From a virus (Duplodnaviria; Caudoviricetes), in the IMG/VR virus record IMGVR_UViG_3300028833_000073, positions 1 to 64,000 of that record: 64,000 nt of DNA; one strand, written 5' to 3'. A program made the translations under genes and the position numbers. Under the pieces are notes generated by a model, which worked only from the letters and a program-made list of their open reading frames with translations, was not told where the DNA came from and ran no database searches. How positions within the stretch are numbered: position 1 is the stretch's first letter; every line of letters begins with the position of its first letter. Positions 27,554 through 49,438 of this stretch are shown piece by piece.

Positions 27554-29815
27554 ATGGGAGTATTCAAATATAGTATCAAGATGGACTATACGGATGATAC
27601 TACAGACGAACCAATACATATCATGTCAGAGAATATTATGGGTGTTCTTATAGACTATAACTTTGATGCTGAATCTATACAACCTATAACTATGGTTAAG
27701 GCTGAACTAGATAGGAACCTAATAGACCAGATGGTAAGTCATAAATCAGAAGGAAGAATTCAGTTGATGATAAATAAGATAGATGTATCTTCAGAACCTG
27801 GAGTAGAGACTCCATATATCAATGCTAAATGTACATATGAGTTTGCAGATGATAAGATGTCTGATAAGACTACTCTATACGGTAGTGATCTTGGAAGAGA
27901 AGATCCTCAAGATATGTATATACAATCTACTATAGGACTAATGAGTGAAGATATAGTAAATTGGAATGTAGTTAGTAATGATTTAGTTATAAGAGAAACT
28001 AATATGATGGGTGCTGTATGTTACTTCACTAAGCATATACCTATAGTAATCCAACCATTTGATCATAATAAAGAAATTGATCAGTTAGTTATACAACCAG
28101 TAGAGAGTATAAAAGAGTTATTAAGATTCTTATGTGATGTAGGTACTTTCTATGATAGTCAGGTTAGATTCTTTTATGACTTTGATTGTGCTTATCTTGT
28201 TGATAGTAGTGGTAGACCAACTCCTAGAGATGATGAGAAGTACAATACAGTTGTTCTTAAAGCTGTCAACCCTGATACTGATACAGGAGTTTTTGAACAA
28301 GGCATTTATGAATTGGAAGAAGAGCAATGTTATAAGATGAACTTCCAGACTGAAGATAATCAGTATAAAGAGGATAACTATCAAGACAAGTTATTCAATA
28401 ATATCATTGGTGTAGTAGATCCTAGTAGAGAAGGAAGCAATGTATCTCTTGTAGACGATATCATGAGTCAAGCTATATCTGCTATTGATAGTATTACACA
28501 GACCATACATGATGTGTGTCATAATATATGTGATGGTATCAATAACGCTATAGAAGGTAAGCATAGACTTAATCATGAAACAATGAGGACATCTGGAGAG
28601 AGTGATAACTATAAGTCTAATTCAAAGTCAGCTAAAGGTGTTTGTAATAGCATCATAGATCAATTTGGTTTAGAGCAGTATGCTCCTGGAATTAAAGAGA
28701 AGGTAAATACTTTTGATCTAGTACCTAGTGAAGTAGAAAGTTATATGAGTACTACTAAAAGTGGAAGAGATGCTTTCCGTGAGATGAGTAATACAAGTAC
28801 TGATGCTGGTTACAATGTAACTACAACTATTGATACCAATATCCAAGGAATAAAGCCTGGTAATATTAAGGACAATGTAGCTCCTATGAAGAAGCAAGTA
28901 CCTCCTAATGAGAAGAACAATGCAACGGTAAATAAATTATCTATTAAGGCTAATAAAGATATGACTAAGAGTATGGGCGAGATGAATACATCTACATCTA
29001 GAAGTATACGCAACATAGATGATACATTGAAGGCTTTAGATCAAGTACCTATAGCTGAAAAGCCTGGAGATCCTGGATTTCCTGCAGAGCAGATAGCACA
29101 AGCTAAAGCTAAACTAGAAGAAGAGAAACAAAAGATTACTGAGAATAAGGGCAATATGAGTAGCTCTTATAGCGCTATGACTAATCATACTGGAAGGGGA
29201 GTTAATTATGGTAGAGATCTGGTCAGTACTCAATCTCAAGAGACTCCTCAAATAAATATACTAGATGGATTACAAGGAAAGCTTAATGAAGTTAGTAGTA
29301 AATTTGAAAATGTAATGACTAGCCTAGATGAAGTTACTAGAGAGGGAGCTAATAATATTAAAGGTGCTATGCAATCTATGAGTGCTTTTGCTGATCTTGG
29401 TATTGGTAGTTTAGCTGACTTAGCTAATATTGCTGGTATAGCTGATCTTAGTTCTATAGGTAAGCTAGGTATTACTGCTATACCTGATGTTAAGCTAGAT
29501 ATTCCTGGTAGTGGTGAACCTAAGAGAAGTAGATATATGGGAACTACTAATGATGATCCTAACAAAGTTAAGACTATACAACATAGTGTTAGTCTTAATG
29601 CTAGAACTATCACTATAACTAAAGACAATGTAGACAATAGTATCTTCACTATCAACAAGGAATATTTAGTCAAACAAAGTCAGAGTAAGGATGACAAAGG
29701 AGGTTTACATCTCATTAAGAGAAAGCAAGAGGTATATGTACGAGAAGGAGATATCTTCTATTCTAACATAATTCTTGACTTTTGTAAATGTCCTGATATG
29801 AACTTTGATGAATAA
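27554..29815 (+). CDS. Probable virion (baseplate-hub-like) protein with central helical insertion
   Basis: 753 aa; beta-rich N- and C-terminal parts around a low-complexity helical middle. Functional call is weak. Confidence 0.45.
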   Translation: MGVFKYSIKMDYTDDTTDEPIHIMSENIMGVLIDYNFDAESIQPITMVKAELDRNLIDQMVSHKSEGRIQLMINKIDVSSEPGVETPYINAKCTYEFADDKMSDKTTLYGSDLGREDPQDMYIQSTIGLMSEDIVNWNVVSNDLVIRETNMMGAVCYFTKHIPIVIQPFDHNKEIDQLVIQPVESIKELLRFLCDVGTFYDSQVRFFYDFDCAYLVDSSGRPTPRDDEKYNTVVLKAVNPDTDTGVFEQGIYELEEEQCYKMNFQTEDNQYKEDNYQDKLFNNIIGVVDPSREGSNVSLVDDIMSQAISAIDSITQTIHDVCHNICDGINNAIEGKHRLNHETMRTSGESDNYKSNSKSAKGVCNSIIDQFGLEQYAPGIKEKVNTFDLVPSEVESYMSTTKSGRDAFREMSNTSTDAGYNVTTTIDTNIQGIKPGNIKDNVAPMKKQVPPNEKNNATVNKLSIKANKDMTKSMGEMNTSTSRSIRNIDDTLKALDQVPIAEKPGDPGFPAEQIAQAKAKLEEEKQKITENKGNMSSSYSAMTNHTGRGVNYGRDLVSTQSQETPQINILDGLQGKLNEVSSKFENVMTSLDEVTREGANNIKGAMQSMSAFADLGIGSLADLANIAGIADLSSIGKLGITAIPDVKLDIPGSGEPKRSRYMGTTNDDPNKVKTIQHSVSLNARTITITKDNVDNSIFTINKEYLVKQSQSKDDKGGLHLIKRKQEVYVREGDIFYSNIILDFCKCPDMNFDE

Positions 29816-29850: not shown

Positions 29851-32358
29851 TTATTGTTGTCCCTGAGCAGGTTGATTGTTCTTATTCTGTTGATCAAGAG
29901 CATTCTGTAATTGGTCAGCATATTGGTTAATATCTGCCTCTGATTGAAATGCTCTTGCATTATTAACAGATGCACTAGCAGATTGAAGTTCAGCATTGAT
30001 CTGAGTATTTTTCTGTTCAGGAGTAAGTCCTGCATTACTTCTTATTGTCTCAATTCTATGTGCTCGTCCTCTGAGATCAGAAATCATTTCAGTAGTAGGC
30101 TTAGCCATATTAGGATCAGATACATTATTAGTGGTGGCAGATTGTGCAGCGGTATCAGGAGACTCTTTATCACCTAGATAGCTCTGTACATGTCTCTTAA
30201 TAACTGCCATATAGTCTTTTTGAATAGTCTGTGCAGCCTGAAGCATTCCTGCAAACACAGTTGATGCGGTGGATGTATACATATTAACCTTCGTGACAAG
30301 ATTTTTAGCATCATCCTTCATATCTTCCGCACTTACAGAATGTGTAACATTTCCTTCTTTATCAACATTACTAACTCCTTGATGTTGAGTAACATTACCA
30401 GCTCCAGTAGCATTACCGAATGCACTAGCATTAGGACTAAAGCTAGATTTAGAAGTATTTGTTCCTCCAGAACCAGAACCACTTCCAAATGTAACTTTTT
30501 CATGTAGACTAGCAGCTTCTTCAATAGGATATCCTAGACATGTTATAATAGCACTAGCAGTAGTTATTTGTGTAATCTTTATTATTTCCTTTCCAGCGTA
30601 TTTGTTTATATCATTAGCAAGACTTTCTTTTTTACCTTCTTCAGCAGCATCCTTAGGATTAGTTAATTTATTATATTCTGCTATAGCATCCTTAAGTTTT
30701 TGGTCATTGGCTGGATTTGCTGCTGTAGCTCCATTTGCATTTCCTTGGAAATTTTTAGTTGGTCTAAATGCACTAGGAGGAGTGGTTCCTTTTGCTTTAG
30801 CAGTTCCAGCATCTATCTCACTCTGAGTAGCATTGCCTTGTCCTACATGTTGATCTTTAGTATGTTGAATTCCAGCTTTATCCATTTCCTTGGCCATTGC
30901 AATAAAGCTATCTCCAGCCTTCTGCATGATACCATAGTTCTTATTTAAGGTAGAATGAATCTTTTGATAATTATAGCAATAGTTAAAGAGATCAGTCATA
31001 TTAACATTAGCTTCAGTTAATTGCATCCTATTTTCTTTACCATCACGAGATCCCTTAAAATAGTTTTTACAGAAATCAGAGAATTCAATACTACCATTAT
31101 ACTCTGAGAAAAACTTCTTTTGAACAAGCTTAAGATTTTCCGCATTATTCTCAGCAGGATAGCCTTCAATATCTCTTGGATTGGGTGTATTGATAGTATA
31201 GGTGCTTAGCCTATTGATTCCTACCTTATAATCACCATCCAACTCAACACTATCAAGCTGGAATTTTTTATTGAGAATAATATCCTTGTATTTGTCTAGA
31301 TAATTCTTATCACTATTGATTGTTCTGGATAAGAACTCTGTGAACTTAGCCCACATCTTTCCTAAGAAATTCTTAAACTTAGTCCAAGCATCAGAGATAC
31401 TATCAGTAACTCCTTCTTGGATACTCATTAACTGACCAAGCTTACTAGCATAATCAGACTCTTCATCTACAATGATAGTGGCTTCATGTACCATTAAACT
31501 TAGCTTATGTTGGACTTCAGCCTTATTAGCTAGATACTGTCTATATGCATTCTCTTGCATATAGTCATATTCACCATCACAGCTATTAAAAGCCCAATCA
31601 GTCTCTTCTCTATCTTTAGCTACATATAGATTACCCTCTGTAATACCAGTAAGATCAAAATGATATCCAGGAACTTTGAAGTGCTCATTGAGGTTATTGA
31701 GATAATAGCAAGCATCAGCTACATACTGATCTGTAGTTGCTTTATCCCAATTCTCACTAGCTTCATAGACTCCTAAGAGACATTTACCATTATCCCATCT
31801 ATCTTCAATATAGTTTACACTTCGTCCAAAGGCTGTCCTCGGAGCTACATCTTCTATCAAAGCCCTAGCCTTTCTAAGTGCAACCATATCTTGAGTTGTC
31901 ATTGGCATAATTGTACCACCTTCTTCAAATCGTTTTGCATGTTTCTTTGTTTCTGCAAAAACTTCTACCATACATTCACCACTATAATCAGAAGTATACC
32001 AATTGGAGTATAACCAATTAAACTTCTTAGAACTTTTTTTCAGATCATCTAACATTTGATATACTGCCGCATCAGCTCCATATTGTTCTCCATCTGGAGA
32101 GGTATATGCAGCTTCATATTGATCCCACACAATACGAGCAACAAACTGATTGTTTGCCTTTAAAAATGATGGAACCTTAACTCGATAAAAATCCTTTTCT
32201 AGTTCACCAACTTTGCCTAATTTCCATTTATTAAAAAACTTTGTTAGCTCATTGTATGCTTCTTTTCTTTCCTTGTCTCCAAAATTCTTATCATTCATTA
32301 ATCCTATTTTTCGTCCTAATCGTTCAAAATAACTAGCCCTATCAATTTTTTCAGGCAT
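29851..32358 (-). CDS. Internal-head paralog family member with extra N-terminal modules
   Basis: IQE-GVTDSISDAWTKFKNFLGKMWAKF..DKNYLDKYKDII family signature after ~310 aa of unrelated sequence. Confidence 0.7.
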   Translation of the reverse strand: MPEKIDRASYFERLGRKIGLMNDKNFGDKERKEAYNELTKFFNKWKLGKVGELEKDFYRVKVPSFLKANNQFVARIVWDQYEAAYTSPDGEQYGADAAVYQMLDDLKKSSKKFNWLYSNWYTSDYSGECMVEVFAETKKHAKRFEEGGTIMPMTTQDMVALRKARALIEDVAPRTAFGRSVNYIEDRWDNGKCLLGVYEASENWDKATTDQYVADACYYLNNLNEHFKVPGYHFDLTGITEGNLYVAKDREETDWAFNSCDGEYDYMQENAYRQYLANKAEVQHKLSLMVHEATIIVDEESDYASKLGQLMSIQEGVTDSISDAWTKFKNFLGKMWAKFTEFLSRTINSDKNYLDKYKDIILNKKFQLDSVELDGDYKVGINRLSTYTINTPNPRDIEGYPAENNAENLKLVQKKFFSEYNGSIEFSDFCKNYFKGSRDGKENRMQLTEANVNMTDLFNYCYNYQKIHSTLNKNYGIMQKAGDSFIAMAKEMDKAGIQHTKDQHVGQGNATQSEIDAGTAKAKGTTPPSAFRPTKNFQGNANGATAANPANDQKLKDAIAEYNKLTNPKDAAEEGKKESLANDINKYAGKEIIKITQITTASAIITCLGYPIEEAASLHEKVTFGSGSGSGGTNTSKSSFSPNASAFGNATGAGNVTQHQGVSNVDKEGNVTHSVSAEDMKDDAKNLVTKVNMYTSTASTVFAGMLQAAQTIQKDYMAVIKRHVQSYLGDKESPDTAAQSATTNNVSDPNMAKPTTEMISDLRGRAHRIETIRSNAGLTPEQKNTQINAELQSASASVNNARAFQSEADINQYADQLQNALDQQNKNNQPAQGQQ

Positions 32359-32375
32359 AGTTATCATCACCGTCC

Positions 32376-32497: not shown

Positions 32498-33679
32498 TTA
32501 GTCCTCTCTAACACCAGTCTTGATATTACCAAGAATTCTATATAGAGCCTTATATAGAATGGTCTTATCCTGGTTAAATCTATCTTTATATGCATCAAGT
32601 CTAGCGCTGAAAGCAATAGTATGAATAGAAGCAACTTCATTGATCTCATTAGATCTTGCCTTCATATAGTACTCATACTTTCTTGCAGCAGAATCTGACC
32701 CTACATCATATTCTTTATCTTTAACCTTAAACTTACCTTCTTTATCAAGGTTTACAATCTTAGATACTTCCTTAGCAATATCATCATATGCCTTCTCGGC
32801 TTCTTTCTTTCTCTTCTCTAGATCCTTCTTAATACTGTCATAAGTATTGAAACGGGTATAAGCTTCTGTAATATCAGTAGCTTCAAACTCATAGTCTTCT
32901 TTACTAGATTGACCATCTCTGAAAACTTCAAAGAGATCCTTAGAATAATCAGAAGCATCAACTCTAGTATTATCAGTTCTTCCTAGCATATATCCTCTTA
33001 TCTTATCATAGTAATCATCACTTTCTAATGCATTCATATAGTCTTGATATGCTTTATCAATATCAAATCCACTTTCTCCATGCTTCTTAAAGCCTTCATC
33101 AGTATTACCAGTAGCAGGTTTAGTTGTAAATGCAGTATTAAGCTTATTATCCATGATATTAGATAAACCAGTACTTGCACTGATACTAAGCCTACCTGTA
33201 TTACTTGCCACACTATAAATAGCATTCATTGGAGGTACATTTGCACCAGCACCATCATCTATAGTAAACTTAAATACGTTCATATGGAACTTATGGTTCT
33301 CATTAAACTTATTGAAATCCTTCTTATGATCTTTAAGATACTTCTCTCTCTTGATTAGCATATTAATACCTACTAAGAACTTATTCAAAAGAGCTTTAAG
33401 AAAGTCCACTACTTTCTTAATAATCTTCTTAAAGGTATCCATCCAGTCAGAGAAAGATTCAGTAATGAGCATATCATTACCTTCACTCTCACATAAAGCA
33501 CCATAGAAAACTCTATTAGCTTCTAGCATCTCATTGTCTAGATTAGTAAGAAACTCTAGAGCTTCATTCACATATGAGTGATCATGTCTATCTGAGTTAA
33601 TGAAAGACTCATTCAAAGAAATAGCACCTTCTGTTACTACATTGGATGTAGAAGGTGCTAACCTATTAAGATCAAACAT
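32498..33679 (-). CDS. Internal-head paralog family protein
   Basis: ITE-SFSDWMDTFKKIIKKVVDFLKALL; LFEVFRDG. Confidence 0.7.
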   Translation of the reverse strand: MFDLNRLAPSTSNVVTEGAISLNESFINSDRHDHSYVNEALEFLTNLDNEMLEANRVFYGALCESEGNDMLITESFSDWMDTFKKIIKKVVDFLKALLNKFLVGINMLIKREKYLKDHKKDFNKFNENHKFHMNVFKFTIDDGAGANVPPMNAIYSVASNTGRLSISASTGLSNIMDNKLNTAFTTKPATGNTDEGFKKHGESGFDIDKAYQDYMNALESDDYYDKIRGYMLGRTDNTRVDASDYSKDLFEVFRDGQSSKEDYEFEATDITEAYTRFNTYDSIKKDLEKRKKEAEKAYDDIAKEVSKIVNLDKEGKFKVKDKEYDVGSDSAARKYEYYMKARSNEINEVASIHTIAFSARLDAYKDRFNQDKTILYKALYRILGNIKTGVRED

Positions 33680-33695: not shown

Positions 33696-34790
33696 TTATT
33701 TCGGTTCATATTTGTAGTTAGCAATCTTAGCTATGAGAGCTTTATTCTGCTTAGACCTTTCTCTAAGAGCACCTAAAGCTGCACCATTGATTGCTAAGAG
33801 TAATGATTTAGATCTATGTGTCCAAGTAAGAAGGTAATTAACCGTAGACATACGATGACTATGTGCATCCTTACCTTTCTTATCTTTACTTCCAACTTTC
33901 AAAGAGTCTTTATCAATATCTTCTCTTGTCTTATTGTAAAGACTCTTCTGATTATATTCAAGCTGCTTAGAGGCATCATCAATGATTCTCTTAGCAGCTC
34001 TATACATCTCTTGTACTTTCTTTCTAGTGTCTCTAGATGTTTGCATCTCGGTACCAATAGTACCTACATTGATCTTACTATTATCCAATGTAGTTTTATC
34101 TTCTTCTCCATTTCTAAAAGCCTTATATAGATCTTTAATGAAATCTGATTGTGATAATTTAGATGCTTGTACCTTAGGGTTGATAGTATGGACTATGTTT
34201 CCTCTAAGGGTTTCAATAGTTGTTTCCATATCAACCTGAGCTTTACTAGGATCTTGGGTATTCTTGATATGAGTTTCAACCTTACTATCATCAAGATTAT
34301 CCATATCCTTATTACTTCCACCAGGCATATTATTACATAACTGCATAGCAGTTTCAATATTCTTAGTTTCTATAGTAAAGACAAATCCATCAAACTCAAA
34401 GTCCGTTAGATTCTTACCAAATACTTCCTTCTTATACTTCTCTAAGAAGGCTCTATCACTCTTAGTCTGTTTATCAATAAACATCATAAACGACTTAAAT
34501 AGAGAGGATAACTTCTCCCAGATTCTATATAAGAACTTCTTAACGGCAAGAATGAATCCTTGTACACTAGCTTCATTATACACTATATCTTCTTTATATT
34601 CTTCCAAATGAGATAATTCATTAACGTATATCTCTTTTTGTATCATATTGTAGTTCTCTGTCATATCAATGACAGCATCAAGTGCTCCCTCTAGATAATC
34701 TTCTCCTAGATACCAAGGAGATCTATCATATACTAAAGACTCTAATGTTAATTCACCTGTTAGAGTCTGATCGTTTTTGAAGATACCCAT
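33696..34790 (-). CDS. Internal-head paralog family protein
   Basis: MGIF start; YNE-A..VKKFLYRIWEKL; DRAFLEKYKKEV; LYKAFRNG. Confidence 0.75.
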   Translation of the reverse strand: MGIFKNDQTLTGELTLESLVYDRSPWYLGEDYLEGALDAVIDMTENYNMIQKEIYVNELSHLEEYKEDIVYNEASVQGFILAVKKFLYRIWEKLSSLFKSFMMFIDKQTKSDRAFLEKYKKEVFGKNLTDFEFDGFVFTIETKNIETAMQLCNNMPGGSNKDMDNLDDSKVETHIKNTQDPSKAQVDMETTIETLRGNIVHTINPKVQASKLSQSDFIKDLYKAFRNGEEDKTTLDNSKINVGTIGTEMQTSRDTRKKVQEMYRAAKRIIDDASKQLEYNQKSLYNKTREDIDKDSLKVGSKDKKGKDAHSHRMSTVNYLLTWTHRSKSLLLAINGAALGALRERSKQNKALIAKIANYKYEPK

Positions 34791-34837: not shown

Positions 34838-34850
34838 TTATCTCTATGTT
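34838..34850 (-). promoter_or_regulatory. Putative late promoter AACA-N6-TAA
   Basis: AACA-TAGAGA-TAA; the same 13-mer occurs at 37937-37949. Matches the AR9 late consensus AACA-N6-TA. Confidence 0.6.
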
Positions 34851-34909
34851 TGAGGTACACAAAATATACCCCCTAGGTTTCCCTAGGGGTTTATATATGA
34901 ATGATTGTA

Positions 34910-35176
34910 TTAGGCTTTAACTACCCAGTCATTAGCAAGCATATCTGCCTGAGATGCCAACCAACCAAGCTGTACACCAGAAGTTCCTACGAAAGCAACT
35001 GCCTGGTTACCAATAGCATCATGATTGGCATTGACCACTTCACCTTTAGCATTCTTGTAGCTGATATTGGTAGCAAGCTCAATATACTGATTCTTGCCAT
35101 TCCAACCTTCTCGTGCTACTTGTTTTCCTTCCTTCATAGCGATGATAGCTTCACCAAAATTCATTCTTTCTTGCAT
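34910..35176 (-). CDS. tad2: DUF2829 / Tad2-family anti-defence (nucleotide-signal sponge) protein
   Basis: MNFGEAI.AMK.GK.VAR.GWNGK ... W.ASQ.DMLA.DW; 88 aa; SD GGAGG. Confidence 0.8.
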   Translation of the reverse strand: MQERMNFGEAIIAMKEGKQVAREGWNGKNQYIELATNISYKNAKGEVVNANHDAIGNQAVAFVGTSGVQLGWLASQADMLANDWVVKA

Positions 35177-35290
35177 TTGTAATTCCTCCATTCTATTATT
35201 AAGAAACAATACATTTATATGTATATAGACAAATTAAAAATAAATTCTCCCTAGGTCGCCCTAGGGAGAAATATATTAGATATGAAAGGA

Positions 35291-36487
35291 TTAATAGTCA
35301 GCTTCCCATACAGCAAGCTCAGCCATTGCCTCTTCCATAATCGCAGACTCTTCCTTACGCTTATAAGCAACTGCCTTAGCAAAAATACTACGATTCTGCT
35401 TATTGTTGAAGTCATAGATCTTAAGAGAAACTTGAGTTGCCTTAAGAACTGCAGACTGCACAATATTAGCAGTACGAGAAAGCATACCTAAAGCTCTCTG
35501 ATGTTTACTAATATTTTCAGAACGAGCATTTTTAGATTTATTATCAGTTCCAGCGGCACCCCATGAAGTACTAGCTGTTGAATATACTTTTGCTTTACCT
35601 TTTTCACTCATATCTGTATCATAGGCTACAGCAGTATGAGATCCTTCATCATTATCATTATCTTTAACTGGAGAATTCTTAAAATTATTATTAGAAGCTT
35701 TTTCAAGATCCTTAATAATCTGATTCATGTCTTTGTTAAGATTATCATATTGCTTCTTAATAGCTTTACGAGTATCCTTAAAGCCCATCATTTCAGTCAT
35801 AATATCATTTATATTTACGCTATCAGTGGTTTCATCTTCAAAAGCCTTATCAAAAGCTTCTTTTTCAAACTCTTTTTCACTTACACTAGATTCACCAATG
35901 AAAGAACCAAGAAGCTTTTCTTTTACATCTTCACCGTCAAACTTTTCATCTTCTTTGCTAATATCTTTATTGTTAATAATATCATAAGTAGAAATATGGC
36001 CGCCTGCCTTTTGGACTTTTACAGAAAGATTATCAAAACTGATAACTTCAAGAGTCTTCTTCTTACGATGAGAAGGCTCAAAATCAGTTAGATCCTTACC
36101 AATGATATCTTTCTTGTACTTATTAATGAATTCCTTGTTATTCTTACCAAACTTAGCTTCAAGACGAGCCATAAAGCCATTGAAAATAGCCTTAATCTTA
36201 GCCCAAAGCTTCTTGAAGAACTCTTTGATCTTATTGAACATATCTCCAATAGCACTCTCAGAGAAGTTCATAACTTCATTCTCATTAACACCTTCATTAA
36301 CCATTAAGCAAGCCTGCATATCTGTCTTAACTCCAGCTTCTACTAGAGCCATTTCATTCTGTAGGCCTACAATCTGTGCAATCTGGGCAGAGTATACACC
36401 ATCATCATAGCCTTCGGCCTCTTGAATATTAAGAGGGGCACTATACCCATTCATAGTATCCATAATCTGATTGGAAAAGATACCCAT
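35291..36487 (-). CDS. Internal-head paralog family protein
   Basis: MGIFS; FSE-S..IKEFFKKLWAKIKAIF; NKEFINKYKKDI; C-terminal KEE-S. Confidence 0.75.
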   Translation of the reverse strand: MGIFSNQIMDTMNGYSAPLNIQEAEGYDDGVYSAQIAQIVGLQNEMALVEAGVKTDMQACLMVNEGVNENEVMNFSESAIGDMFNKIKEFFKKLWAKIKAIFNGFMARLEAKFGKNNKEFINKYKKDIIGKDLTDFEPSHRKKKTLEVISFDNLSVKVQKAGGHISTYDIINNKDISKEDEKFDGEDVKEKLLGSFIGESSVSEKEFEKEAFDKAFEDETTDSVNINDIMTEMMGFKDTRKAIKKQYDNLNKDMNQIIKDLEKASNNNFKNSPVKDNDNDEGSHTAVAYDTDMSEKGKAKVYSTASTSWGAAGTDNKSKNARSENISKHQRALGMLSRTANIVQSAVLKATQVSLKIYDFNNKQNRSIFAKAVAYKRKEESAIMEEAMAELAVWEADY

Positions 36488-36551: not shown

Positions 36552-36564
36552 TTATCTTGATGTT
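36552..36564 (-). promoter_or_regulatory. Putative late promoter AACA-N6-TAA
   Basis: AACA-TCAAGA-TAA upstream of 35291..36487. Confidence 0.6.
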
Positions 36565-36649: not shown

Positions 36650-37849
36650 TCACTTAAGAGCAAGATCTGCTAAGAATCCAGAACCACCAGTTGGTGTATA
36701 AGACTCTTCATATGCACTTTCACTCTTAGACTTATGAGCTACTGCTGCTACGATACAAGCTTTATACTGACGAGAACGATCATTAATCGCCCTAAGTCCT
36801 TCTGCATTAACAGCGGTTAGTAATTCTGCACTAAGATGGGTCCATTTCAAATAATAGTTAGCTCCTGTAACCCTAGCTTCATAATGTTTGCTTTTTTCTT
36901 TATCATTATCTTTAGCCTGCTGTGTATCTCCAGAAGGTTTAACAGGAAGCTCATGATGACCTCCCTTAATAATAGAATTTAATACTTTTTCGGTATCTTT
37001 AATCGTCCTATCAGATGCCTTATATGCATCATTTAGTTCTTTCTTGGTTTGCTTTGAAGTCATAAGTTCTGTAGCATAATCAGAAAGATTAATCTTATCA
37101 AGTTCTTCTTTTTCACTTTCGCCATTACGGAAAGCTTCAAATAAAGCCTTTCTAAATTCAGTAGCATCCATTGATCCACCAGATTTTGCACCTGCAGCTA
37201 CAGCTACTTCACCACGTTCCTTCTCTGCCTCATCAGTAAATTTTTCATTATCTTTCTTAAAATTATCATTATTAGCATCATAAAACTGGCCTGCTTTAGA
37301 ATCACCTGCATTTTTTTCGATACCTTCAAAAGTCTTAAAATTAGATTCACTAATACCACATTTTTTAATAGCATTAGTAAGGTTGTCAAGTGTAAACTTA
37401 TATCCCTTGAAAGTGAAATCACTTAGATCCTTACCACTATAAATCTCTTTCTTATACTTTTGAACGAACTCCTTATCGTTCTTCATATAAGAATCAATCT
37501 TCATAATGAAACGCTTAAAGAGAGCCTTAATCTTCTCCCATACCTTCTTAAGGAAATTCTTAATACTCTCAATGAAGCCTTCAACTACTACTTCAGTATA
37601 TTCATACTCCTTACCAGTCTGCTCCATATAGACTAGCTCGTTACCCATTAAAGCCTTCTCAATCATATTGTAATTCTCATTGATATCAATGACTGCCTGA
37701 AGACCACACTCAGTGAGATCCATACTCTCTGAGAATACAGTATCTAGACTATCATCATTTAGCACTGCTTCCTCAAAACTCTTATTTTCAGTGATCTCAC
37801 TATCATAACCTTCATAGCTATTCTTAACTGTCTGGCTAAAAATACCCAT
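36650..37849 (-). CDS. Internal-head paralog family protein
   Basis: MGIFS; VVE-G..IKNFLKKVWEKIKALFKRF; DKEFVQKYKKEIYSGK; C-terminal KSE-S. Confidence 0.75.
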   Translation of the reverse strand: MGIFSQTVKNSYEGYDSEITENKSFEEAVLNDDSLDTVFSESMDLTECGLQAVIDINENYNMIEKALMGNELVYMEQTGKEYEYTEVVVEGFIESIKNFLKKVWEKIKALFKRFIMKIDSYMKNDKEFVQKYKKEIYSGKDLSDFTFKGYKFTLDNLTNAIKKCGISESNFKTFEGIEKNAGDSKAGQFYDANNDNFKKDNEKFTDEAEKERGEVAVAAGAKSGGSMDATEFRKALFEAFRNGESEKEELDKINLSDYATELMTSKQTKKELNDAYKASDRTIKDTEKVLNSIIKGGHHELPVKPSGDTQQAKDNDKEKSKHYEARVTGANYYLKWTHLSAELLTAVNAEGLRAINDRSRQYKACIVAAVAHKSKSESAYEESYTPTGGSGFLADLALK

Positions 37850-37936: not shown

Positions 37937-37949
37937 TTATCTCTATGTT
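37937..37949 (-). promoter_or_regulatory. Putative late promoter AACA-N6-TAA
   Basis: AACA-TAGAGA-TAA just downstream of the 37965-37990 terminator. Confidence 0.6.
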
Positions 37950-37995: not shown

Positions 37996-39207
37996 TTACT
38001 TCATAACCACACTAGAGAAAGGAGTATAACCAAGACTAGCAGATTCTGCTAACTGTGCTACACTCTCATTCTTAGGCTTATGAGCCACATAGGCAATGAT
38101 AATTGCCTTATTCTGTCTAGACCTTTCTTTAAGAGCATTAAGACATGCTCCTTCAATAGTTAGTACACATGTTTTAGTATCTTTAATTGCTCGCATATTA
38201 AGGCTTAATGTTTTTGCAGCTCTATCACTTTGTTCCTTTCCAGTTGCATTAATAATAGATTTTTGTGCATTTCCATCTTTATCATAACGAGTAATGGTAG
38301 CAGATGATGATTTTGCATCTTTATCATCTAATGGCTGAGTTTTAAAAAAATCTTTTTGTCTTCTATCTACTTCTTTATCATCTTCATCTATAGATTTCTT
38401 TGCAGCTTTTAACATATCTGTCATTGTTTTCTTTGTTTCTTTTGATGTCATAAGTTCAGTAGCAATACCACTAATACCACCAGGAAAATCTTTTTCATCC
38501 AATTCTTCTTTAGATTCTTCTCCGCTATGATAAGCATTACGAAGTTCTTTAGTAAATTCAGATTGGGTTAAGGAGCTAGATGATTTTCCTGTTAAAGTTG
38601 TTATTACTTTTCCTCTAAACGCATCTGCAAGATCTTCGTATTTATCTTCAGTTTTCTTAAGATCATCTAGTGGTTTGGCAGTAGATCCTGCTAATTCTCT
38701 ATAGTCCATAGATTTAGCAACACAATCTTGAACAGCCTTACTAGTATTATCAAATGCAGACTTACTAAATTTCCATCCTTTAAAGGTGAAGTCAGTTAGA
38801 CTCTTACCACTATAAATTTCTTTCTTATACTTCTGAACAAATTCCTTATCAGTCTTTGTCCAGCTATCAATCTGCATCATAAATCTCTTAAAGAGAACCT
38901 TAATCTTCTCCCAGATCTTCTTAAGAAAGTTCTTGATGGCATTTACCATGTCACCAAGCATTCCTTCATTGTATACCAGGAGTTCACCGGTTCTCTCAAG
39001 ATATGAAGACTCAGCTAAAGCAGTCTGAGTCATAAACATATTGTAGTTCTCTTGCATAGTAATGCAGCAATCAAGAGCGCCTTCCATTAAGTCGTCTCCT
39101 TCATAAGGCTCTACATTACTATCAGTCATAATGGAATCAAGAGTGTCCTCATTAAAAGGTTGTTCTCCATGATATCCATAATGGGCTTCATTAGAAAAGA
39201 TTCCCAT
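37996..39207 (-). CDS. Internal-head paralog family protein
   Basis: MGIFS; YNE-G..IKNFLKKIWEKIKVLFKRF; DKEFVQKYKKEIYSGK; C-terminal KNE-S. Confidence 0.75.
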   Translation of the reverse strand: MGIFSNEAHYGYHGEQPFNEDTLDSIMTDSNVEPYEGDDLMEGALDCCITMQENYNMFMTQTALAESSYLERTGELLVYNEGMLGDMVNAIKNFLKKIWEKIKVLFKRFMMQIDSWTKTDKEFVQKYKKEIYSGKSLTDFTFKGWKFSKSAFDNTSKAVQDCVAKSMDYRELAGSTAKPLDDLKKTEDKYEDLADAFRGKVITTLTGKSSSSLTQSEFTKELRNAYHSGEESKEELDEKDFPGGISGIATELMTSKETKKTMTDMLKAAKKSIDEDDKEVDRRQKDFFKTQPLDDKDAKSSSATITRYDKDGNAQKSIINATGKEQSDRAAKTLSLNMRAIKDTKTCVLTIEGACLNALKERSRQNKAIIIAYVAHKPKNESVAQLAESASLGYTPFSSVVMK

Positions 39208-39231
39208 AGTTATATCACCTCATGAAAGATT

Positions 39232-39510
39232 TTATTTGAAATTGAAGTTGAAGAATGCTGATTCATTCTTGCTATCGCTGTCATCCTTATCATCATTGTC
39301 TTCTGTATCAACATCATCGTCGGTATCTGGTTCCATGTCATCATTGAGCTTCTTACTCTTCTTAGATGACTTCTTATCTGTATCCTTCTTTTTCTTCTTC
39401 TTAGACTTTCCAGCCTCATCAAGAAGAATTTCAGGATCATAAGAACCATCATCGTTAATTAAAGACTCATGAATGTAAACTCCACGCTTTGAATCATATG
39501 CATATCCCAT
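39232..39510 (-). CDS. Small K/D-rich protein with conserved leader
   Basis: MGY..DS.RGVYIHESL leader shared with the next gene; SD GAGG. Confidence 0.75.
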   Translation of the reverse strand: MGYAYDSKRGVYIHESLINDDGSYDPEILLDEAGKSKKKKKKDTDKKSSKKSKKLNDDMEPDTDDDVDTEDNDDKDDSDSKNESAFFNFNFK

Positions 39511-39525
39511 GATATAACAACTCCT

Positions 39526-40002
39526 TTATTTCAACTCAAGACCAGAGAAGAACTCTGTTGAGTAATCATAAGATTCATTCTTAGATTTATATCTTGCTAG
39601 CATTTCTTGCCTTTTTTCAATTTTATCATCATGCTTTTTACCTGCCTTGTCTAAAGAACGAGCAGAAACTCCTTTAGCCTTAGCAGCGGTTATTCTTTCA
39701 CTAGTTCTCTGAGGATGTCTAGCCCATGAATCTTTGGCCCATGTTGCATTATCCTCTTTAGATGTCGATCCTTTATACTTTTCTTTAGATGCTGCAAATT
39801 TTGTATCTGCAGCAGAAATTTCAGAATCTCTATGATATCTTCCTACTCCACCAGCCTTTTTATTAAACTTCTTTCCGGCTGCATTATTATTTATTACTGC
39901 ATGAATATTTTCATTCAATATATCAGCATCATAATGTCCGTTCTCATCTACTAAAGACTCATGAATATATACTCCTCTATCAGAGTCAAATAGATATCCC
40001 AT
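39526..40002 (-). CDS. Small basic protein with conserved leader
   Basis: Same leader and SKNES tail as 39232..39510, with an unrelated K/A/R-rich middle. Confidence 0.75.
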   Translation of the reverse strand: MGYLFDSDRGVYIHESLVDENGHYDADILNENIHAVINNNAAGKKFNKKAGGVGRYHRDSEISAADTKFAASKEKYKGSTSKEDNATWAKDSWARHPQRTSERITAAKAKGVSARSLDKAGKKHDDKIEKRQEMLARYKSKNESYDYSTEFFSGLELK

Positions 40003-40021
40003 TTATTTTCACCATCCTTGT

Positions 40022-42616
40022 CTAATTCATTACCTGAATAGTAATATCAGGTAGGTCTTTACTAGTAATGTTCACGCATATCAATTCAGGTACTTTTGTG
40101 ATGTCTGTTTCAAAGGGTTCCCTTGTAAGATGCTGTATAGAAGTATCATAATGATTGAAGTTAACAAAGTCAAAGAATTCAATTTGAGTCTTAAACTCTT
40201 CATATACAGCGGACTGAAGATTAGCAAAGTGAAGATCTCCAAGATTATTGAAGTTCTCTATATATTCCTTGATGTAGTTGGTAATATCAGTAAGATATTC
40301 CTCAGTAGCAGCAGGAGTAGGTTTAGTTCTGAATACAGGAGATATAGATGTGTTATCTAATTGAGTATCATTCTCTACTTTAAAGAATCTAGCAGGACCA
40401 TATGTGTTGAATAGCTTTATATCTACACCAAATCCATCTTCTATAGTTACTAGCTTGAAGTCTATGTAGTGTCTTACAATCTCTAGATACTCTACGATGT
40501 TTCTTATTCTCTCTTCGGTGATTACATAGTCATATTTGATACAAGGTACCTTCTTAATACTGTATCTAAGACTATTATCAGTACCCTGGGAGATATTGAT
40601 AAATGTGGATATGACTTTGCTATAGTTGTAATACATCGGTACTCCATTCATAATCGAGTACATGTTACAACAAGTCCATCCTTCTAGACCATTAACATAA
40701 GTGGATATAGCTCCTCTACCAGTATAGTCTTCAGATAGTTTAGCAAGTATATAGATATCAACATCTGTAGTTTCTGGGAAATATCCATCAATAGTGTAAG
40801 TTTGGTGAATATCATATAGATTCAATAGTTTAAGATTCATATCTTTATCCATAGTATTATCTGTGGTAAATCTGAAGTCATATCTGAATGATTGATCTTC
40901 ATCATTATAACTAACAAAGTCTGCATAAGCATATCTAGAAGGAGTACCATCTTTATTCTTAAGGATAGCTATGACCTTTAACTTAGCGTCAACTACAACC
41001 TCTTTATTATTTTCGTCTCTAGTAGTGATAAGAATATCATAGTTATCAGTATTGATGTTCTGTAGCATATTGAGAGACAAAATATAAGTGTTTCTATCAG
41101 TGAAGTACTCTCTTCTCCATCTGATATCATTCACTATGAATTGCAATGGAGAGTTCTGATTAATATAAGCGAAGGTTACATCTCTTACACAATCTATGAT
41201 GTTAATAAGATAGCTGACATAGAAAGGACTCTTATTGATTACCATTAAGAATGGATTGAAATATAAGAACCCACTGTCTCTATACTGCTTCATAGCTTCT
41301 TCATCATTAAGATAAGATGTCACTACTTGTCCATTGATATTTCTTCTATAGTAGATACAGTTACCAGGATATAGTAGATAGTTAGAGTTACTGATACCAT
41401 CGAACTGGTCTCTAGTAATGTCTATATCAATGGTATTTGTAGGAATGACATTGTTATCTTGCTTAATAGCTACATAGCTATAGTACAATCTCTCTAATGA
41501 ATCTAGTTTCTTAATAAAGTAAATCCTTCTATCATCTGTATTGATACTATTAAAGAAGCTTCCTAAATCACTAGTATTAGTTACACTACCTCTAGCTAGC
41601 ATCTCAGTAGGAATCAACTTCTTAAGATCCTCAGTAGAGTTACCATCTTCTCCTGTTTGAGAGTCTGTTAATGGTTTAGATATCATCCAGATATTGTTGT
41701 ATTTAAATCTGTCTGACTTCAGGTCAGACATGATAGTTTTTGTATAAGTAAAGTTACCTTCTTCTCCCTTAGTAGTATAGATATTGATAGTAATTCTCGC
41801 ATTTATTCTAGGCTGATATGATTCCTTCTTAAAAGTACATCTTATAGTCTTCTCGTCTAAGAATAGATAGGTTAGATACTTAGATCCAGTATTATCTATC
41901 AACCCATCATATACTGCATTAAGATGATAAGTATTATCTCCCTCTTTAACATCAATATTGAATCCAGCTAGCTGATCATCAAAAGAGAACTGAAATGTCT
42001 TATTCTGCAATGGGTTAGATGTAATAAGAGTAAGCTCTTGCCTATCTATAGCTACCTGTCTTATCTGAGTCTGTATAGCAATGATTCTAGTATTATTTAC
42101 AGTGAATCTTCCTACTGACTGTATATAAGGACTAGTAAGATCTGATAATGGATTAGATCTAGACATGTCATATAGAGCCGTATATACTGTGTCCTTATTA
42201 GGAAGAGTGACTCTTCTAATGATGATATCATAGTCTAGATGAAACTCAAAATCACCAACCATGATTTTGTAGTTAGAATCTAATGTAAATCTACCAGTAT
42301 AGTCTAGATTCTTCTCTAGTCTATCTTCTGGTAGATATACTACTACTTTCATTATCGCTGGTGTTGCCTCAGCAGATAATCCTAAAGAGTAAGCATGAGT
42401 CAATACATTTCTACCAAACTGAGCTTTAGTAGGTAATGCTTCTAATGAGTTCTCAGAAGCAGTCTGAGCTGAGTTTTGTAGAATATTAGCTTGTACTTCT
42501 CCAAAGTATCCAAAGATACCCATCTGTAATGGTTCATCATCCATATCTATATGCTTCTTCTTAATCTCATCTATGAAGGAATTACATTCATAGATGTCTG
42601 TGAAATCTACAGCCAC
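40022..42616 (-). CDS. Baseplate wedge protein (gp6/J-like)
   Basis: E..PTKAQFGRNVLTHA..LG, YTTKGEEGNF and G.D..STEDLKKLIP..RGSVTNTSDL follow the gp6/J pattern. GTG start from SD GGAGGG. Confidence 0.7.
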   Translation of the reverse strand: MAVDFTDIYECNSFIDEIKKKHIDMDDEPLQMGIFGYFGEVQANILQNSAQTASENSLEALPTKAQFGRNVLTHAYSLGLSAEATPAIMKVVVYLPEDRLEKNLDYTGRFTLDSNYKIMVGDFEFHLDYDIIIRRVTLPNKDTVYTALYDMSRSNPLSDLTSPYIQSVGRFTVNNTRIIAIQTQIRQVAIDRQELTLITSNPLQNKTFQFSFDDQLAGFNIDVKEGDNTYHLNAVYDGLIDNTGSKYLTYLFLDEKTIRCTFKKESYQPRINARITINIYTTKGEEGNFTYTKTIMSDLKSDRFKYNNIWMISKPLTDSQTGEDGNSTEDLKKLIPTEMLARGSVTNTSDLGSFFNSINTDDRRIYFIKKLDSLERLYYSYVAIKQDNNVIPTNTIDIDITRDQFDGISNSNYLLYPGNCIYYRRNINGQVVTSYLNDEEAMKQYRDSGFLYFNPFLMVINKSPFYVSYLINIIDCVRDVTFAYINQNSPLQFIVNDIRWRREYFTDRNTYILSLNMLQNINTDNYDILITTRDENNKEVVVDAKLKVIAILKNKDGTPSRYAYADFVSYNDEDQSFRYDFRFTTDNTMDKDMNLKLLNLYDIHQTYTIDGYFPETTDVDIYILAKLSEDYTGRGAISTYVNGLEGWTCCNMYSIMNGVPMYYNYSKVISTFINISQGTDNSLRYSIKKVPCIKYDYVITEERIRNIVEYLEIVRHYIDFKLVTIEDGFGVDIKLFNTYGPARFFKVENDTQLDNTSISPVFRTKPTPAATEEYLTDITNYIKEYIENFNNLGDLHFANLQSAVYEEFKTQIEFFDFVNFNHYDTSIQHLTREPFETDITKVPELICVNITSKDLPDITIQVMN

Positions 42617-42618
42617 AT

Positions 42619-43572
42619 TTAATCCCTCCACTCAAAGACATATTTGATTGTATTTCTATACTTATCCTGTTCAGTGCCAATCATAGGAGGATTACCAAAT
42701 ACATTATTTACATATCCTAGGTCTTTATCATATAGCTTAGCGTTAGATCCGCTGTATTGTTTACTAAGCTCATTGAAGTCTTCTATAATCATAGGATCCA
42801 TATCTTCTACCATATTAGCTTTGAAGTTAACAGTGAACTTGAAATTACCATCTTCTGGCATATCACTGAATGCACTACGAGGAACATTCTTAGGATATAC
42901 TCCATATAACTTAGCCCAATATATAACCTCTCTAGCATCCTCTGCTAGGATGAATTTGAATACAGCCATTTGGTCATGTATCTTTCTCTCTGTTATATAC
43001 TTACCACCACGATACTGCATAATATTTATACCACCATAAGACTTCTTTATCTCATACTCATCATAGAGCTTGAAGAATGTATATACATCTCTATACTTGT
43101 TATCTAAAAACTCCATAGAGAAGTCAAAGTCATCATTACTTGGAGCTGAAGACCTACGATAATAGATCTTTTGTCCCCACAAATTCTCTGCTGTTTCCAT
43201 ATCTTGTGAGTCTAGATCAGGAAGATCTAGATTACTTGCTCTATGATTATATAGAATAGCAGAAAAGGGTAAGCCATTCTCACTAAGAGATAGATCTGTT
43301 ATAGCAGGATGTCTTTCGTTTATGAATTTATTAAAGATAGGAGTTCCTACACCCCTTACATATAGATCTGGTTTAGTAAAGAACACATACTCGAATGTAT
43401 TACCTACACGATTATATGGATCTAAGTAATTGAATCTAATGAACTTATCTGTATCTCTTATATCTTCTCTATCAAATAAGCCATTACCCATTCTAGACTT
43501 CTTTAAGCTAGAATCTTCATCTCCTCTGCTCTCAAATGATTGAGCAGTTACGTTATCACCTGAATTAGGCAT
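42619..43572 (-). CDS. Tail-tube-like baseplate protein (gp48/gp54-like)
   Basis: YVFFTKPDL, FSMEFLD, YWAKLYGVYPKNVP and FTVNFK match tube-fold patterns; adjacent to the wedge gene. Confidence 0.55.
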   Translation of the reverse strand: MPNSGDNVTAQSFESRGDEDSSLKKSRMGNGLFDREDIRDTDKFIRFNYLDPYNRVGNTFEYVFFTKPDLYVRGVGTPIFNKFINERHPAITDLSLSENGLPFSAILYNHRASNLDLPDLDSQDMETAENLWGQKIYYRRSSAPSNDDFDFSMEFLDNKYRDVYTFFKLYDEYEIKKSYGGINIMQYRGGKYITERKIHDQMAVFKFILAEDAREVIYWAKLYGVYPKNVPRSAFSDMPEDGNFKFTVNFKANMVEDMDPMIIEDFNELSKQYSGSNAKLYDKDLGYVNNVFGNPPMIGTEQDKYRNTIKYVFEWRD

Positions 43573-47692: not shown

Positions 47693-49438
47693 ATGGGAAT
47701 TTATAACCCTTCAATAGATAGTGAAGGTCTAAAGAGTGCTATTGAGAATGAGTTTGGAGTAACTGCTAGTAATCCTTTGTCTCCAGAGGCTAAAGCAGTT
47801 GCTAAGTGTTCTAAGTCATTCACTACTGGTAAGGCTATCCGTACTCTTAAGGAGAATGGATGGACTGATGCTATGATCAATAGCTTACTACTAGAAACTG
47901 CTAAGAAGAGTAAGAAAAAGAAAGATGATGAGAAAGATGAAGATACTTCTACTGATGATATTGATTCTATTGATCTCGATGACAGTGATTCTGATTCATC
48001 TGATTCTAAGTCTAAGTCTAAAGGATCCGATGATAGTGACAGTGATAAAGATTCTAGCAATTCTGATTCTGATGATGATGATAAGGATTTACATAAAGAT
48101 GTAGATGATGATAAGAAGTCTAAGAAGAGTAAGAAGAAAGACGACGATGATAAAGATGATGAAAAGGACGATGACGATAAGGATGAGGATGACAAGAAGT
48201 CGAAGAAAAAGAAAGGAAAGAAGAACTCTAAGAAGAAGGAAGATGATCTTGAAGAGCATGGTTCTATTTCTTCTAATTCTCCTCATACTTTTGATCCAAT
48301 CAAAGCCATAGAAGAAGAGTTTGATGCATACTTCAAAGTAGGAGTTAAGTCAGTACCTATTCCTAAACCTAGGGGATTCTTAGAGGCTACTAGACTTAGG
48401 GTAGATCCCTCATATGAGAGACCATTTAAGACTCCTGAGTTTAATAGAGCTGTAATGGAAAACCTAGATATGTCTGATCATAATACTAGAGTTATTATGA
48501 CTACAGTGGATGAAGATGATCAATCTATTGTGCTTCAGTCTTTGACTAATAAGCTATATGATATGATCGTTGATAAGTCTACTGATATTGACTATGGTGA
48601 AATTCCTAATACTAAGGGAGATATTGATGCTCTTTCTAACATTGCTAAGATTGAAGAGTGCTTAGATACTATCTCTAGTATCTGCACTCAGTATAAACAA
48701 CCTACTGATCAGGTAGATATTGTTAAGAGGGCTATTGATAATACAAGGGAAAGAAAAGAGCTATTTATGACTGGCTATCAGAGAGGTGCTGGATTCACTG
48801 TATTCACATATCAAACAGTGGTTCTTGCTATCGTAGCTAGTACATCTCTATTGATTTCTTCTTGTATTGAATTCATTAAGAATCCTGGAAGTGAGTCATT
48901 CTCTATTTCCTTTGACAAGGCTGGTATGAGTAAGTCTAAGAACAGCTTACTTTTCAACAATCTTAGGGAATATAATAAGATCTGTGATGATAAGAGTATT
49001 GATAAGGCTCTCACTACTACGAATGCTACGGAAGAGAGACATTTCTTAGGTACATCCACTATGGCTACACTAGCTCTTGCTGGTGCTGTGGCTGTTATCC
49101 TATTTAATATTCTTCCGATTCTAAGAGAGCTTACATACTTCTTCTACTATACTCGTACAAGGATTTCTGATTACTTCAATCTACAGGCAGATCTCTTAGA
49201 GATCAATGCTGAACGTCTTAAGCAAGATGAACCAGAAACTGTAGGTAATAGAAATATGGTTATTAAGAGACAGAAGGCTATTGCTGAGAGATTCAGAAAG
49301 CTAGCTGACTTCTTTATGATAGATAGTAGACAGACTGAGGGTAGGGTAGTAAGAGAGATATCTCAGACTAAGAAGACCCTCAAAGCAGATGATATCATGG
49401 ATAATGTTCCTGATAGTACAGCATCTGCTCTATTCTAA
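47693..49438 (+). CDS. Probable head/core protein with K/D-rich insert and a C-terminal hydrophobic segment
   Basis: MGIY start (SD GAGGTG); K/D/S tract between LLE-T and LEE-H; hydrophobic LALAGAVAVILFNILPIL. Confidence 0.6.
   Translation: MGIYNPSIDSEGLKSAIENEFGVTASNPLSPEAKAVAKCSKSFTTGKAIRTLKENGWTDAMINSLLLETAKKSKKKKDDEKDEDTSTDDIDSIDLDDSDSDSSDSKSKSKGSDDSDSDKDSSNSDSDDDDKDLHKDVDDDKKSKKSKKKDDDDKDDEKDDDDKDEDDKKSKKKKGKKNSKKKEDDLEEHGSISSNSPHTFDPIKAIEEEFDAYFKVGVKSVPIPKPRGFLEATRLRVDPSYERPFKTPEFNRAVMENLDMSDHNTRVIMTTVDEDDQSIVLQSLTNKLYDMIVDKSTDIDYGEIPNTKGDIDALSNIAKIEECLDTISSICTQYKQPTDQVDIVKRAIDNTRERKELFMTGYQRGAGFTVFTYQTVVLAIVASTSLLISSCIEFIKNPGSESFSISFDKAGMSKSKNSLLFNNLREYNKICDDKSIDKALTTTNATEERHFLGTSTMATLALAGAVAVILFNILPILRELTYFFYYTRTRISDYFNLQADLLEINAERLKQDEPETVGNRNMVIKRQKAIAERFRKLADFFMIDSRQTEGRVVREISQTKKTLKADDIMDNVPDSTASALF

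Follow-up and report, generated by a model that had tools for sequence, protein, structure and literature searches.

Internal proteins IPI-III and Alt of bacteriophage T4 carry capsid-targeting sequences (Mullaney and Black 1996, as reviewed in PMC9026906 and PMC5694885). Such a sequence is an N-terminal peptide of 10-19 residues that takes otherwise unrelated proteins into the prohead core and is removed by the gp21 protease after a hydrophobic-x-Glu motif; its sufficiency was shown experimentally in T4, and Alt is trimmed at both ends. The T4 head cluster also includes two small adjacent genes, following the portal gene, that encode the core proteins gp67 and gp68 (80 and 141 aa). The former has an extreme acidic block, in its tail, and the latter a strongly basic half, and both are cut into fragments by the gp21 head protease.

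In the giant phages phiKZ, 201phi2-1 and SPN3US, head proteins are cleaved after Glu with few other determinants, Ser being favoured at P1' in SPN3US. The internal head (inner-body, ejection) proteins of phiKZ and SPN3US are encoded by tandem paralog arrays in the head module and bear long acidic N-terminal propeptides with Glu cleavage. N-termini are conserved between the SPN3US paralogs gp53 and gp54, and the known substrate propeptides of this phage, the protease's own excepted, are all N-terminal. Short C-terminal shell-binding ends are found in encapsulin cargo-loading peptides, phage scaffolding proteins and the HK97 protease; in encapsulin-type loading, such a peptide on unrelated cargo docks inside an HK97-fold shell.

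Source of the sequence

The DNA originates from the sheep gut and belongs to an uncultured giant phage, of which kindred strains occur in goat and sheep gut sequencing runs. The window analysed here corresponds to positions 1-64,000 of a 158-kb IMG/VR virus record; on this record, which has an estimated completeness of 64%, no major capsid protein, portal or protease was found. The phage is a low-GC jumbo phage whose distant kin are AR9/PBS1, phiR1-37 and Staphylococcus jumbo phages, and a split RNA polymerase beta subunit is encoded within the window. Three related viral genomes (G001, G002 and G003), two of them near-complete, were retrieved with the paralog alignment. An identical copy of the larger small protein described below (158 aa) is also recorded on a contig of 296,790 bp.

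The array of putative internal head proteins

Downstream of the two small genes, and like them on the minus strand, lie six genes. Four are paralogs of about 400 aa: a phiKZ_IP-like internal head protein of 403 aa (37996-39207), also placed by the language-model Atlas, and proteins of 399 aa (36650-37849), 398 aa (35291-36487) and 364 aa (33696-34790). The first two end in a class-A tail, the third in an acidic helical (class-B) tail after K-E-E-S, and the fourth, which is tail-less, straight after the conserved helix. The remaining two are more distant family members of 393 aa (32498-33679; PF12699 E 3.4e-5, N-terminal HMM E 5e-5, C-terminal HMM E 1.6e-5) and 839 aa (29851-32370; PF12699 E 1.5e-4, N-terminal HMM E 0.0046).

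In all four related metagenomic genomes PF12699 matches several array genes. The matches always fall at model positions of about 90-130 and are sub-threshold, scoring 10-25 bits (the curated cut-off is 27 bits); one array gene of G003 exceeds the cut-off, at 33.5 bits, when its pieces are summed. The Atlas places the 403-aa paralog, at 0.94, with a cluster that partly carries PF12699. The array profile also matches AR9 g216 and phiR1-37 g199 weakly in the amphipathic-helix region (E 0.004 and 0.07, respectively). Taken together, these sequence matches suggest that the six downstream genes encode divergent internal head proteins of the phiKZ type. PF12699 gave no match to either of the two small proteins.

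Directly upstream of the small genes is the gene of an 869-aa conserved jumbo-phage protein (40022-42631, minus strand; PHROG 18960), which is 22-25% identical in tblastn to AR9 g212 and phiR1-37 g207. It is preceded by the first gene of the apparent operon, encoding a 317-aa virion structural protein (42619-43572, minus strand) assigned from PHROG 21400 and from position; the positional counterparts AR9 g213 and phiR1-37 g208, located just upstream of the g212 and g207 homologues, are both annotated as virion proteins. A portal function of the 869-aa protein, which would give the T4-like order 20-67-68, was considered and ruled out, the portal of Staphylococcus phage DC4 being annotated at another locus; the AR9 and phiR1-37 homologues are also without a virion-protein flag. 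Pairwise comparison of the 869-aa and 317-aa proteins with phiKZ gp87 and gp88, prompted by gene order, detected no similarity. Sequence searches of solved structures returned nothing at E <=1 for the 869-aa protein and insignificant values for the array profile (E 0.78) and the 317-aa protein (E 0.38-0.39). No terminator was found that would separate the small genes from their upstream (869-aa) or downstream (403-aa) neighbour. The same arrays occur in G001, G002 and G003, where the small genes are absent at that position.

The two small proteins

The first small gene (39526-40002, minus strand) encodes a 158-aa protein made up of a hairpin leader (residues 1-31; 39910-40002), a basic middle of 112 aa (pI 10.1) and the C-terminal module of the array family, SKNES with a 15-aa tail ending FFSGLELK (39529-39585). 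The second (39232-39510, minus strand) encodes 92 aa, with a hairpin leader (residues 1-32; 39415-39510), a charged middle (residues 33-79; 39274-39414), and SKNES with a 9-aa tail (AFFNFNFK; 39235-39273). Its middle consists of a 24-aa Lys block (pI 10.5), starting with AGKSKKKK right after L-D-E, and then a 27-aa Asp/Glu block (pI 4.1). Both ORFs have a strong Shine-Dalgarno sequence 7-9 nt upstream. The shared leader, SKNES and aromatic tail ending in Lys on adjacent genes, as well as the unrelatedness of the middles, had been reported in the initial annotation, and these observations were verified with respect to coordinates, strand and leader identity.

The leaders are identical at 19 of 29 residues (66%; BLASTP E 3e-13). 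Eight of the identical residues are encoded by different codons, for instance Arg by AGA in one gene and CGT in the other, and the two genes differ in the Ser codon of SKNES (TCT versus AGC). Because codons differ where residues are identical, the likeness of the leaders is old and held by selection at the protein level, and does not reflect a recent copy. Only five of the roughly 155 ORFs in the 158-kb record have K-x-E-S among their last 40 residues, and all five genes are adjacent.

AF2 models built from single sequences predict, with moderate confidence, the same beta-hairpin in both leaders (strands at residues 3-6 and 11-14), followed by charged disordered sequence. In the 158-aa model the leader reaches a pLDDT of about 70, the middle stays below 50, and a helix spans residues 115-141; in the 92-aa model the hairpin has a pLDDT of 82-85 and the remainder is disordered. 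Prediction of a leader-to-leader complex gave a score of 0.02, which is evidence neither way. A RusA-like PHROG match of the 92-aa protein (E 0.0039) was dismissed as a low-complexity artefact.

The tail-bearing family and its C-terminal module

A search with profile A2 of 1.84 billion representatives returned 2,368 relatives, of which 570 had E <=1e-30, whereas tblastn of 50,697 cultured-phage records found no homologue of the family in cultured phages. Judged by its sequences, the family would be a large uncharacterised branch of the internal-head-protein superfamily. Its architecture and the PSSMs used here were derived from the best 150 of the 2,368 database members. These proteins start with M-G-[IVF]-[YF]-[STN] (Gly at position 2 in 118 of 150), followed by an acidic propeptide of about 80 residues, a Glu site, and an amphipathic basic helix (the KIWEKIK region). 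At the C-terminus the consensus reads Y-K-P-K-N-E-S, continues through an acidic-aromatic linker of about 20 residues and closes with F-L-S-N-V-E-L-K; the median tail length after Glu is 20 residues. The second class of tail consists of an acidic amphipathic helix. An extra hydrophobic-x-E-[SGAN] site is present in 73% of tail regions, compared with 18% of central windows. This architecture implies, as a prediction, processing at both ends.

The small proteins share the C-terminal part of this architecture. When 820 ORFs of four genomes were ranked with a PSSM of the last nine residues, the 158-aa protein came second (14.8 bits) and the 92-aa protein fifth (10.6 bits), the top five all being array genes. 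A 60-residue C-terminal HMM matched residues 137-158 (22 aa) of the 158-aa protein at E 0.002, and all 14 of its 14 matches above the inclusion threshold were array genes, with no false positives. It did not pick up the 92-aa protein, whose tail is one residue below the consensus length. The N-terminal HMM found every array gene and neither small protein, and in the N-terminal PSSM ranking the latter were only 100th and 172nd. Since the C-terminal module alone is held in common, the small proteins are partial ('mini') members of the family.

One full-length family member from an ENA metagenome, P0049 (457 aa), has the two tail classes one after the other, first an acidic helical tail and then a Lys block with an acid block and a terminal F-L-x-x-I-x-F-K. 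Its C-terminal extension has the same order of Lys block, acid block and tail as the 92-aa protein, beginning with an identical 9-mer directly after V-V-E (V-V-E|E), a site at the end of the full-length paralog. BLASTP between the blocks of the two proteins gave E 1.6e-5 with ungapped statistics and without composition correction. As P0049 repeats the same order after V-V-E, the Lys/acid block plus tail is a module of the family, with Glu sites flanking it in P0049 as well as in the 92-aa protein, and P0049 suggests that tails are modular and could be appended or split into separate genes. A reading of the middle of the 92-aa protein as foreign cargo is not borne out, because the block and tail recur on this full-length member.

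The M-G-I/V-Y/F-S/N start is also seen outside the array, in G001 on proteins of 570 aa (G001:C1:74917-76629) and 149 aa (212931-213380), and in this phage on a 753-aa protein (27554-29815, plus strand) and, if read from an internal ATG, on a 585-aa virion protein (47693-49438, plus strand). It might represent a wider N-terminal signal or a chance resemblance.

Glu sites and the prohead protease

In the leaders, hydrophobic-x-Glu occurs as I-H-E (I-H-E|S) at residue 15 of both proteins and as L-N-E or L-D-E at 31/32; the family-type sites are E15, E20 and E31 in the 158-aa protein and E15 and E32 in the 92-aa protein. In the large family members the Glu site before the helix has a hydrophobic P3 in 68 of 68 cases and G/A/N/S at P1' in 65 of 68. 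Of the Glu residues of the small proteins, five of six in the leaders and none of 12 elsewhere are of this type (Fisher p ~7e-4), a count made by eye and post hoc in which the two E15 sites are homologous, and the enrichment is for these reasons a rough argument only. K-N-E|S of the small proteins has Lys at P3, unlike the hydrophobic P3 of the family N-terminal sites; due to this difference, the conserved PKNES may be a structural hinge and not a cut site.

A Peptidase_S77 protein (Glu-specific, of the T4 gp21 type) is encoded by G001, G002, G003, AR9 and phiR1-37. In G001 its gene is located about 40 kb before the array, and by synteny a protease gene of this phage would fall before the first position of the contig. 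In the record of phiR1-37 g199 the mature protein is annotated as starting at residue 56, immediately behind L-T-E; the accompanying note says Asp and the translation has Glu. In AR9 the Peptidase_S77 match (88778-89578 of the record) is broken into two segments separated by about 375 nt, which fits an interrupted (intron-containing) gene.

Distribution of the leader and natural variation

The initial annotation had proposed to search for the leader and to tabulate its cargos. No further leader was found in the phage's own genome, in five related or reference genomes, in IMG/VR (DNA pattern and peptide patterns), in JGI metagenomes, or in a 5.8-billion protein set at near and longer lengths; one search of this last set failed to return the 92-aa paralog as positive control and is therefore weak evidence. 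The N-terminal HMM showed no match between the leader and the propeptide of the large paralogs. As far as these weak searches reach, the leader appears confined to the two proteins, and there is consequently no catalogue of cargos to tabulate.

Two sheep-gut metatranscriptome libraries of another study, which may contain carried-over DNA, include contigs 100% identical to the window at 39285-39761, 39886-40115, 39186-39446 and 39507-39660. Jointly they cover parts of both small genes, and the contig at 39285-39761 bridges the two. A 96%-identical strain retains both small genes without indels. In the goat-gut run X9, one contig joins position 39531 to 40022 and so deletes the 158-aa gene almost exactly, and in a second contig 39450-39950 is replaced by 562 unlike letters. 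These contigs indicate that the locus is variable and that at least one relative can dispense with the 158-aa gene. This gene is polymorphic for presence or absence: in the deletion contig, 16 other letters separate the end of the 869-aa gene from the 92-aa gene.

Comparison with described systems

The nearest functional analogues of the small proteins would be T4 gp67 and gp68. Both pairs are small adjacent genes in a head cluster (92 and 158 aa here), with an extreme acidic block in one product and a strongly basic stretch in the other. However, in BLASTP one pair did not align and the other reached E 51, the 869-aa neighbour is not a portal, and the T4 proteins have neither a shared leader nor a shared tail. 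The resemblance is thus limited to size, charge pattern and gene context.

With the T4 capsid-targeting sequence the module would share its predicted role, that of a short terminal peptide taking otherwise unrelated proteins into the prohead core, as well as predicted removal by a gp21-type protease after hydrophobic-x-Glu and, as in Alt, trimming at both ends. The candidate signal held family-wide is, in contrast, C-terminal and about 25 residues long, and the N-terminal leader of about 31 residues is private to the pair. The array resembles those of phiKZ and SPN3US in its tandem paralogs within a head module, in the conserved N-termini of its members, in its long acidic propeptides with predicted Glu cleavage and in its consistent PF12699 matches, which score below the Pfam cut-off. 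Unlike array members, phiKZ gp92-96 lack the M-G-hydrophobic-aromatic start and the F-L-x-x-V-x-L-K end, and a C-terminal propeptide would set the array apart from SPN3US. The likeness to encapsulin-type loading is an analogy of mechanism, and no sequence kinship is claimed.

Interpretation

The two ORFs are best read, with a probability of roughly 0.55, as minimal members of the internal-head-protein module, loaded via the family tail and trimmed at Glu. Having the family C-terminal tag and a private N-terminal hairpin, the 158-aa and 92-aa proteins probably serve as small, charged proteins of the capsid core, trimmed by the protease. Packaging, cleavage and the role of each end are what we infer for them, as follows. 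The terminal F-L-x-x-V-x-L-K peptide would dock the protein to a prohead component, either the shell interior or the core, and the small proteins would in this way be built into the prohead alongside the large paralogs. A prohead protease of the T4 gp21 type would then cut after Glu in the leader (E15, E20, E31/32), with a second cut probably at or near K-N-E|S. The charged middles would be freed as internal peptides, one basic and one with a Lys block and an Asp block, which may stay with the DNA or exit the head, as fragments of T4 gp67 and gp68 do. The shared beta-hairpin would act as a second, pair-specific signal.

The initial annotation had seen in the conserved ends a packaging and processing cassette around swappable cargo, with the leader as the targeting end. 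The cassette is favoured by the head-protein module, by Glu sites at both ends and by the protease of three relatives, but family-wide support exists at the tail and not at the leader. As for swappable cargo, the middles are indeed unrelated and vary between strains; the set nevertheless has two members, and these middles are disordered, low-complexity charged segments, closer in kind to the core peptides gp67 and gp68 of T4 than to enzymes. A leader acting as a capsid-targeting sequence like those of T4 internal proteins, removed at x-x-E, with the tail as merely a second propeptide, would agree with its purifying selection and N-terminal position, with the fit of I-H-E|S at 15 and L-x-E at 31/32 to the L/I-x-E rule of T4, and with the identical N-termini of SPN3US gp53 and gp54, read as CTS-like by their authors. 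This reading is nonetheless unlikely, given that the leader was found on two proteins only, that it is unlike the propeptide of the large paralogs, which have a different conserved N-terminus of their own, and that the element common to all tail-bearing head proteins is the C-terminal one, where the small proteins match the consensus of a family of 2,368 representatives.

The small proteins could also be non-virion products, either assembly regulators or decoys that use the family tail to compete for its receptor (for instance to set copy number or timing), or degenerating leftovers of paralog duplication. The strong ribosome-binding sites of both genes, the synonymous-only change at eight identical leader residues, the retention of both reading frames in the 96%-identical strain and the limitation of family-type Glu sites to the leader, suggesting exposure to the head protease, make this rather improbable, even with the 158-aa gene missing from one goat-gut relative and the middle replaced in another, the small genes absent at that position from three related genomes, and middles of low complexity. 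Retention of the hairpin leader as an oligomerisation element, which would link the two small proteins, or multiple copies of each, into a core resembling a scaffold, is suggested by the prediction of the same hairpin in both proteins at pLDDT 70-85 from single sequences; with three family-type Glu sites inside or right after the hairpin, it is a very doubtful alternative to loading via the tail and trimming at Glu.

A broader and distinctly tentative extension of the preferred reading is that the F-L-x-x-V-x-L-K peptide, released at a Glu site, serves as a general, encapsulin-like C-terminal capsid-loading tag of a very large and wholly uncultured clade of gut and rumen jumbo phages, the small proteins being minimal cargos and the hairpin leader a separate second address. 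For phiKZ and SPN3US, N-terminal propeptides alone are documented, and the conserved C-terminal tag offers a concrete candidate loading signal, bearing on the way in which dozens of internal and ejected proteins enter the heads of giant phages. The two mini-proteins amount to little more than tag, linker and charged peptide; if the proposal is true, such natural minimal cargos would show that little beyond tag and linker is needed, and the tag would be a candidate for a portable loading signal, of limited practical value pending a cultured relative or a reconstituted shell. A further implication of the pair is that jumbo phages may have small charged core peptides like gp67 and gp68 of T4.

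Other features of the array

The late-promoter consensus of AR9 is AACA-N6-TA/G (PMC5312081). Near-identical motifs that fit this consensus, AACAT(A/C)(G/A)AGATAATGA, are located on the minus strand at 37938-37949, 36553-36564 and 34839-34850, so that the 399-, 398- and 364-aa genes each have one of their own 60-100 nt upstream; the small genes have none. Within the head-protein array, a 99-aa Tad2-like gene (Thoeris anti-defence 2; PF11195, E 9e-22) occupies 34910-35209 on the minus strand and is flanked by two hairpin terminators of the CCCTAGG type, at 34870-34889 and 35245-35270.
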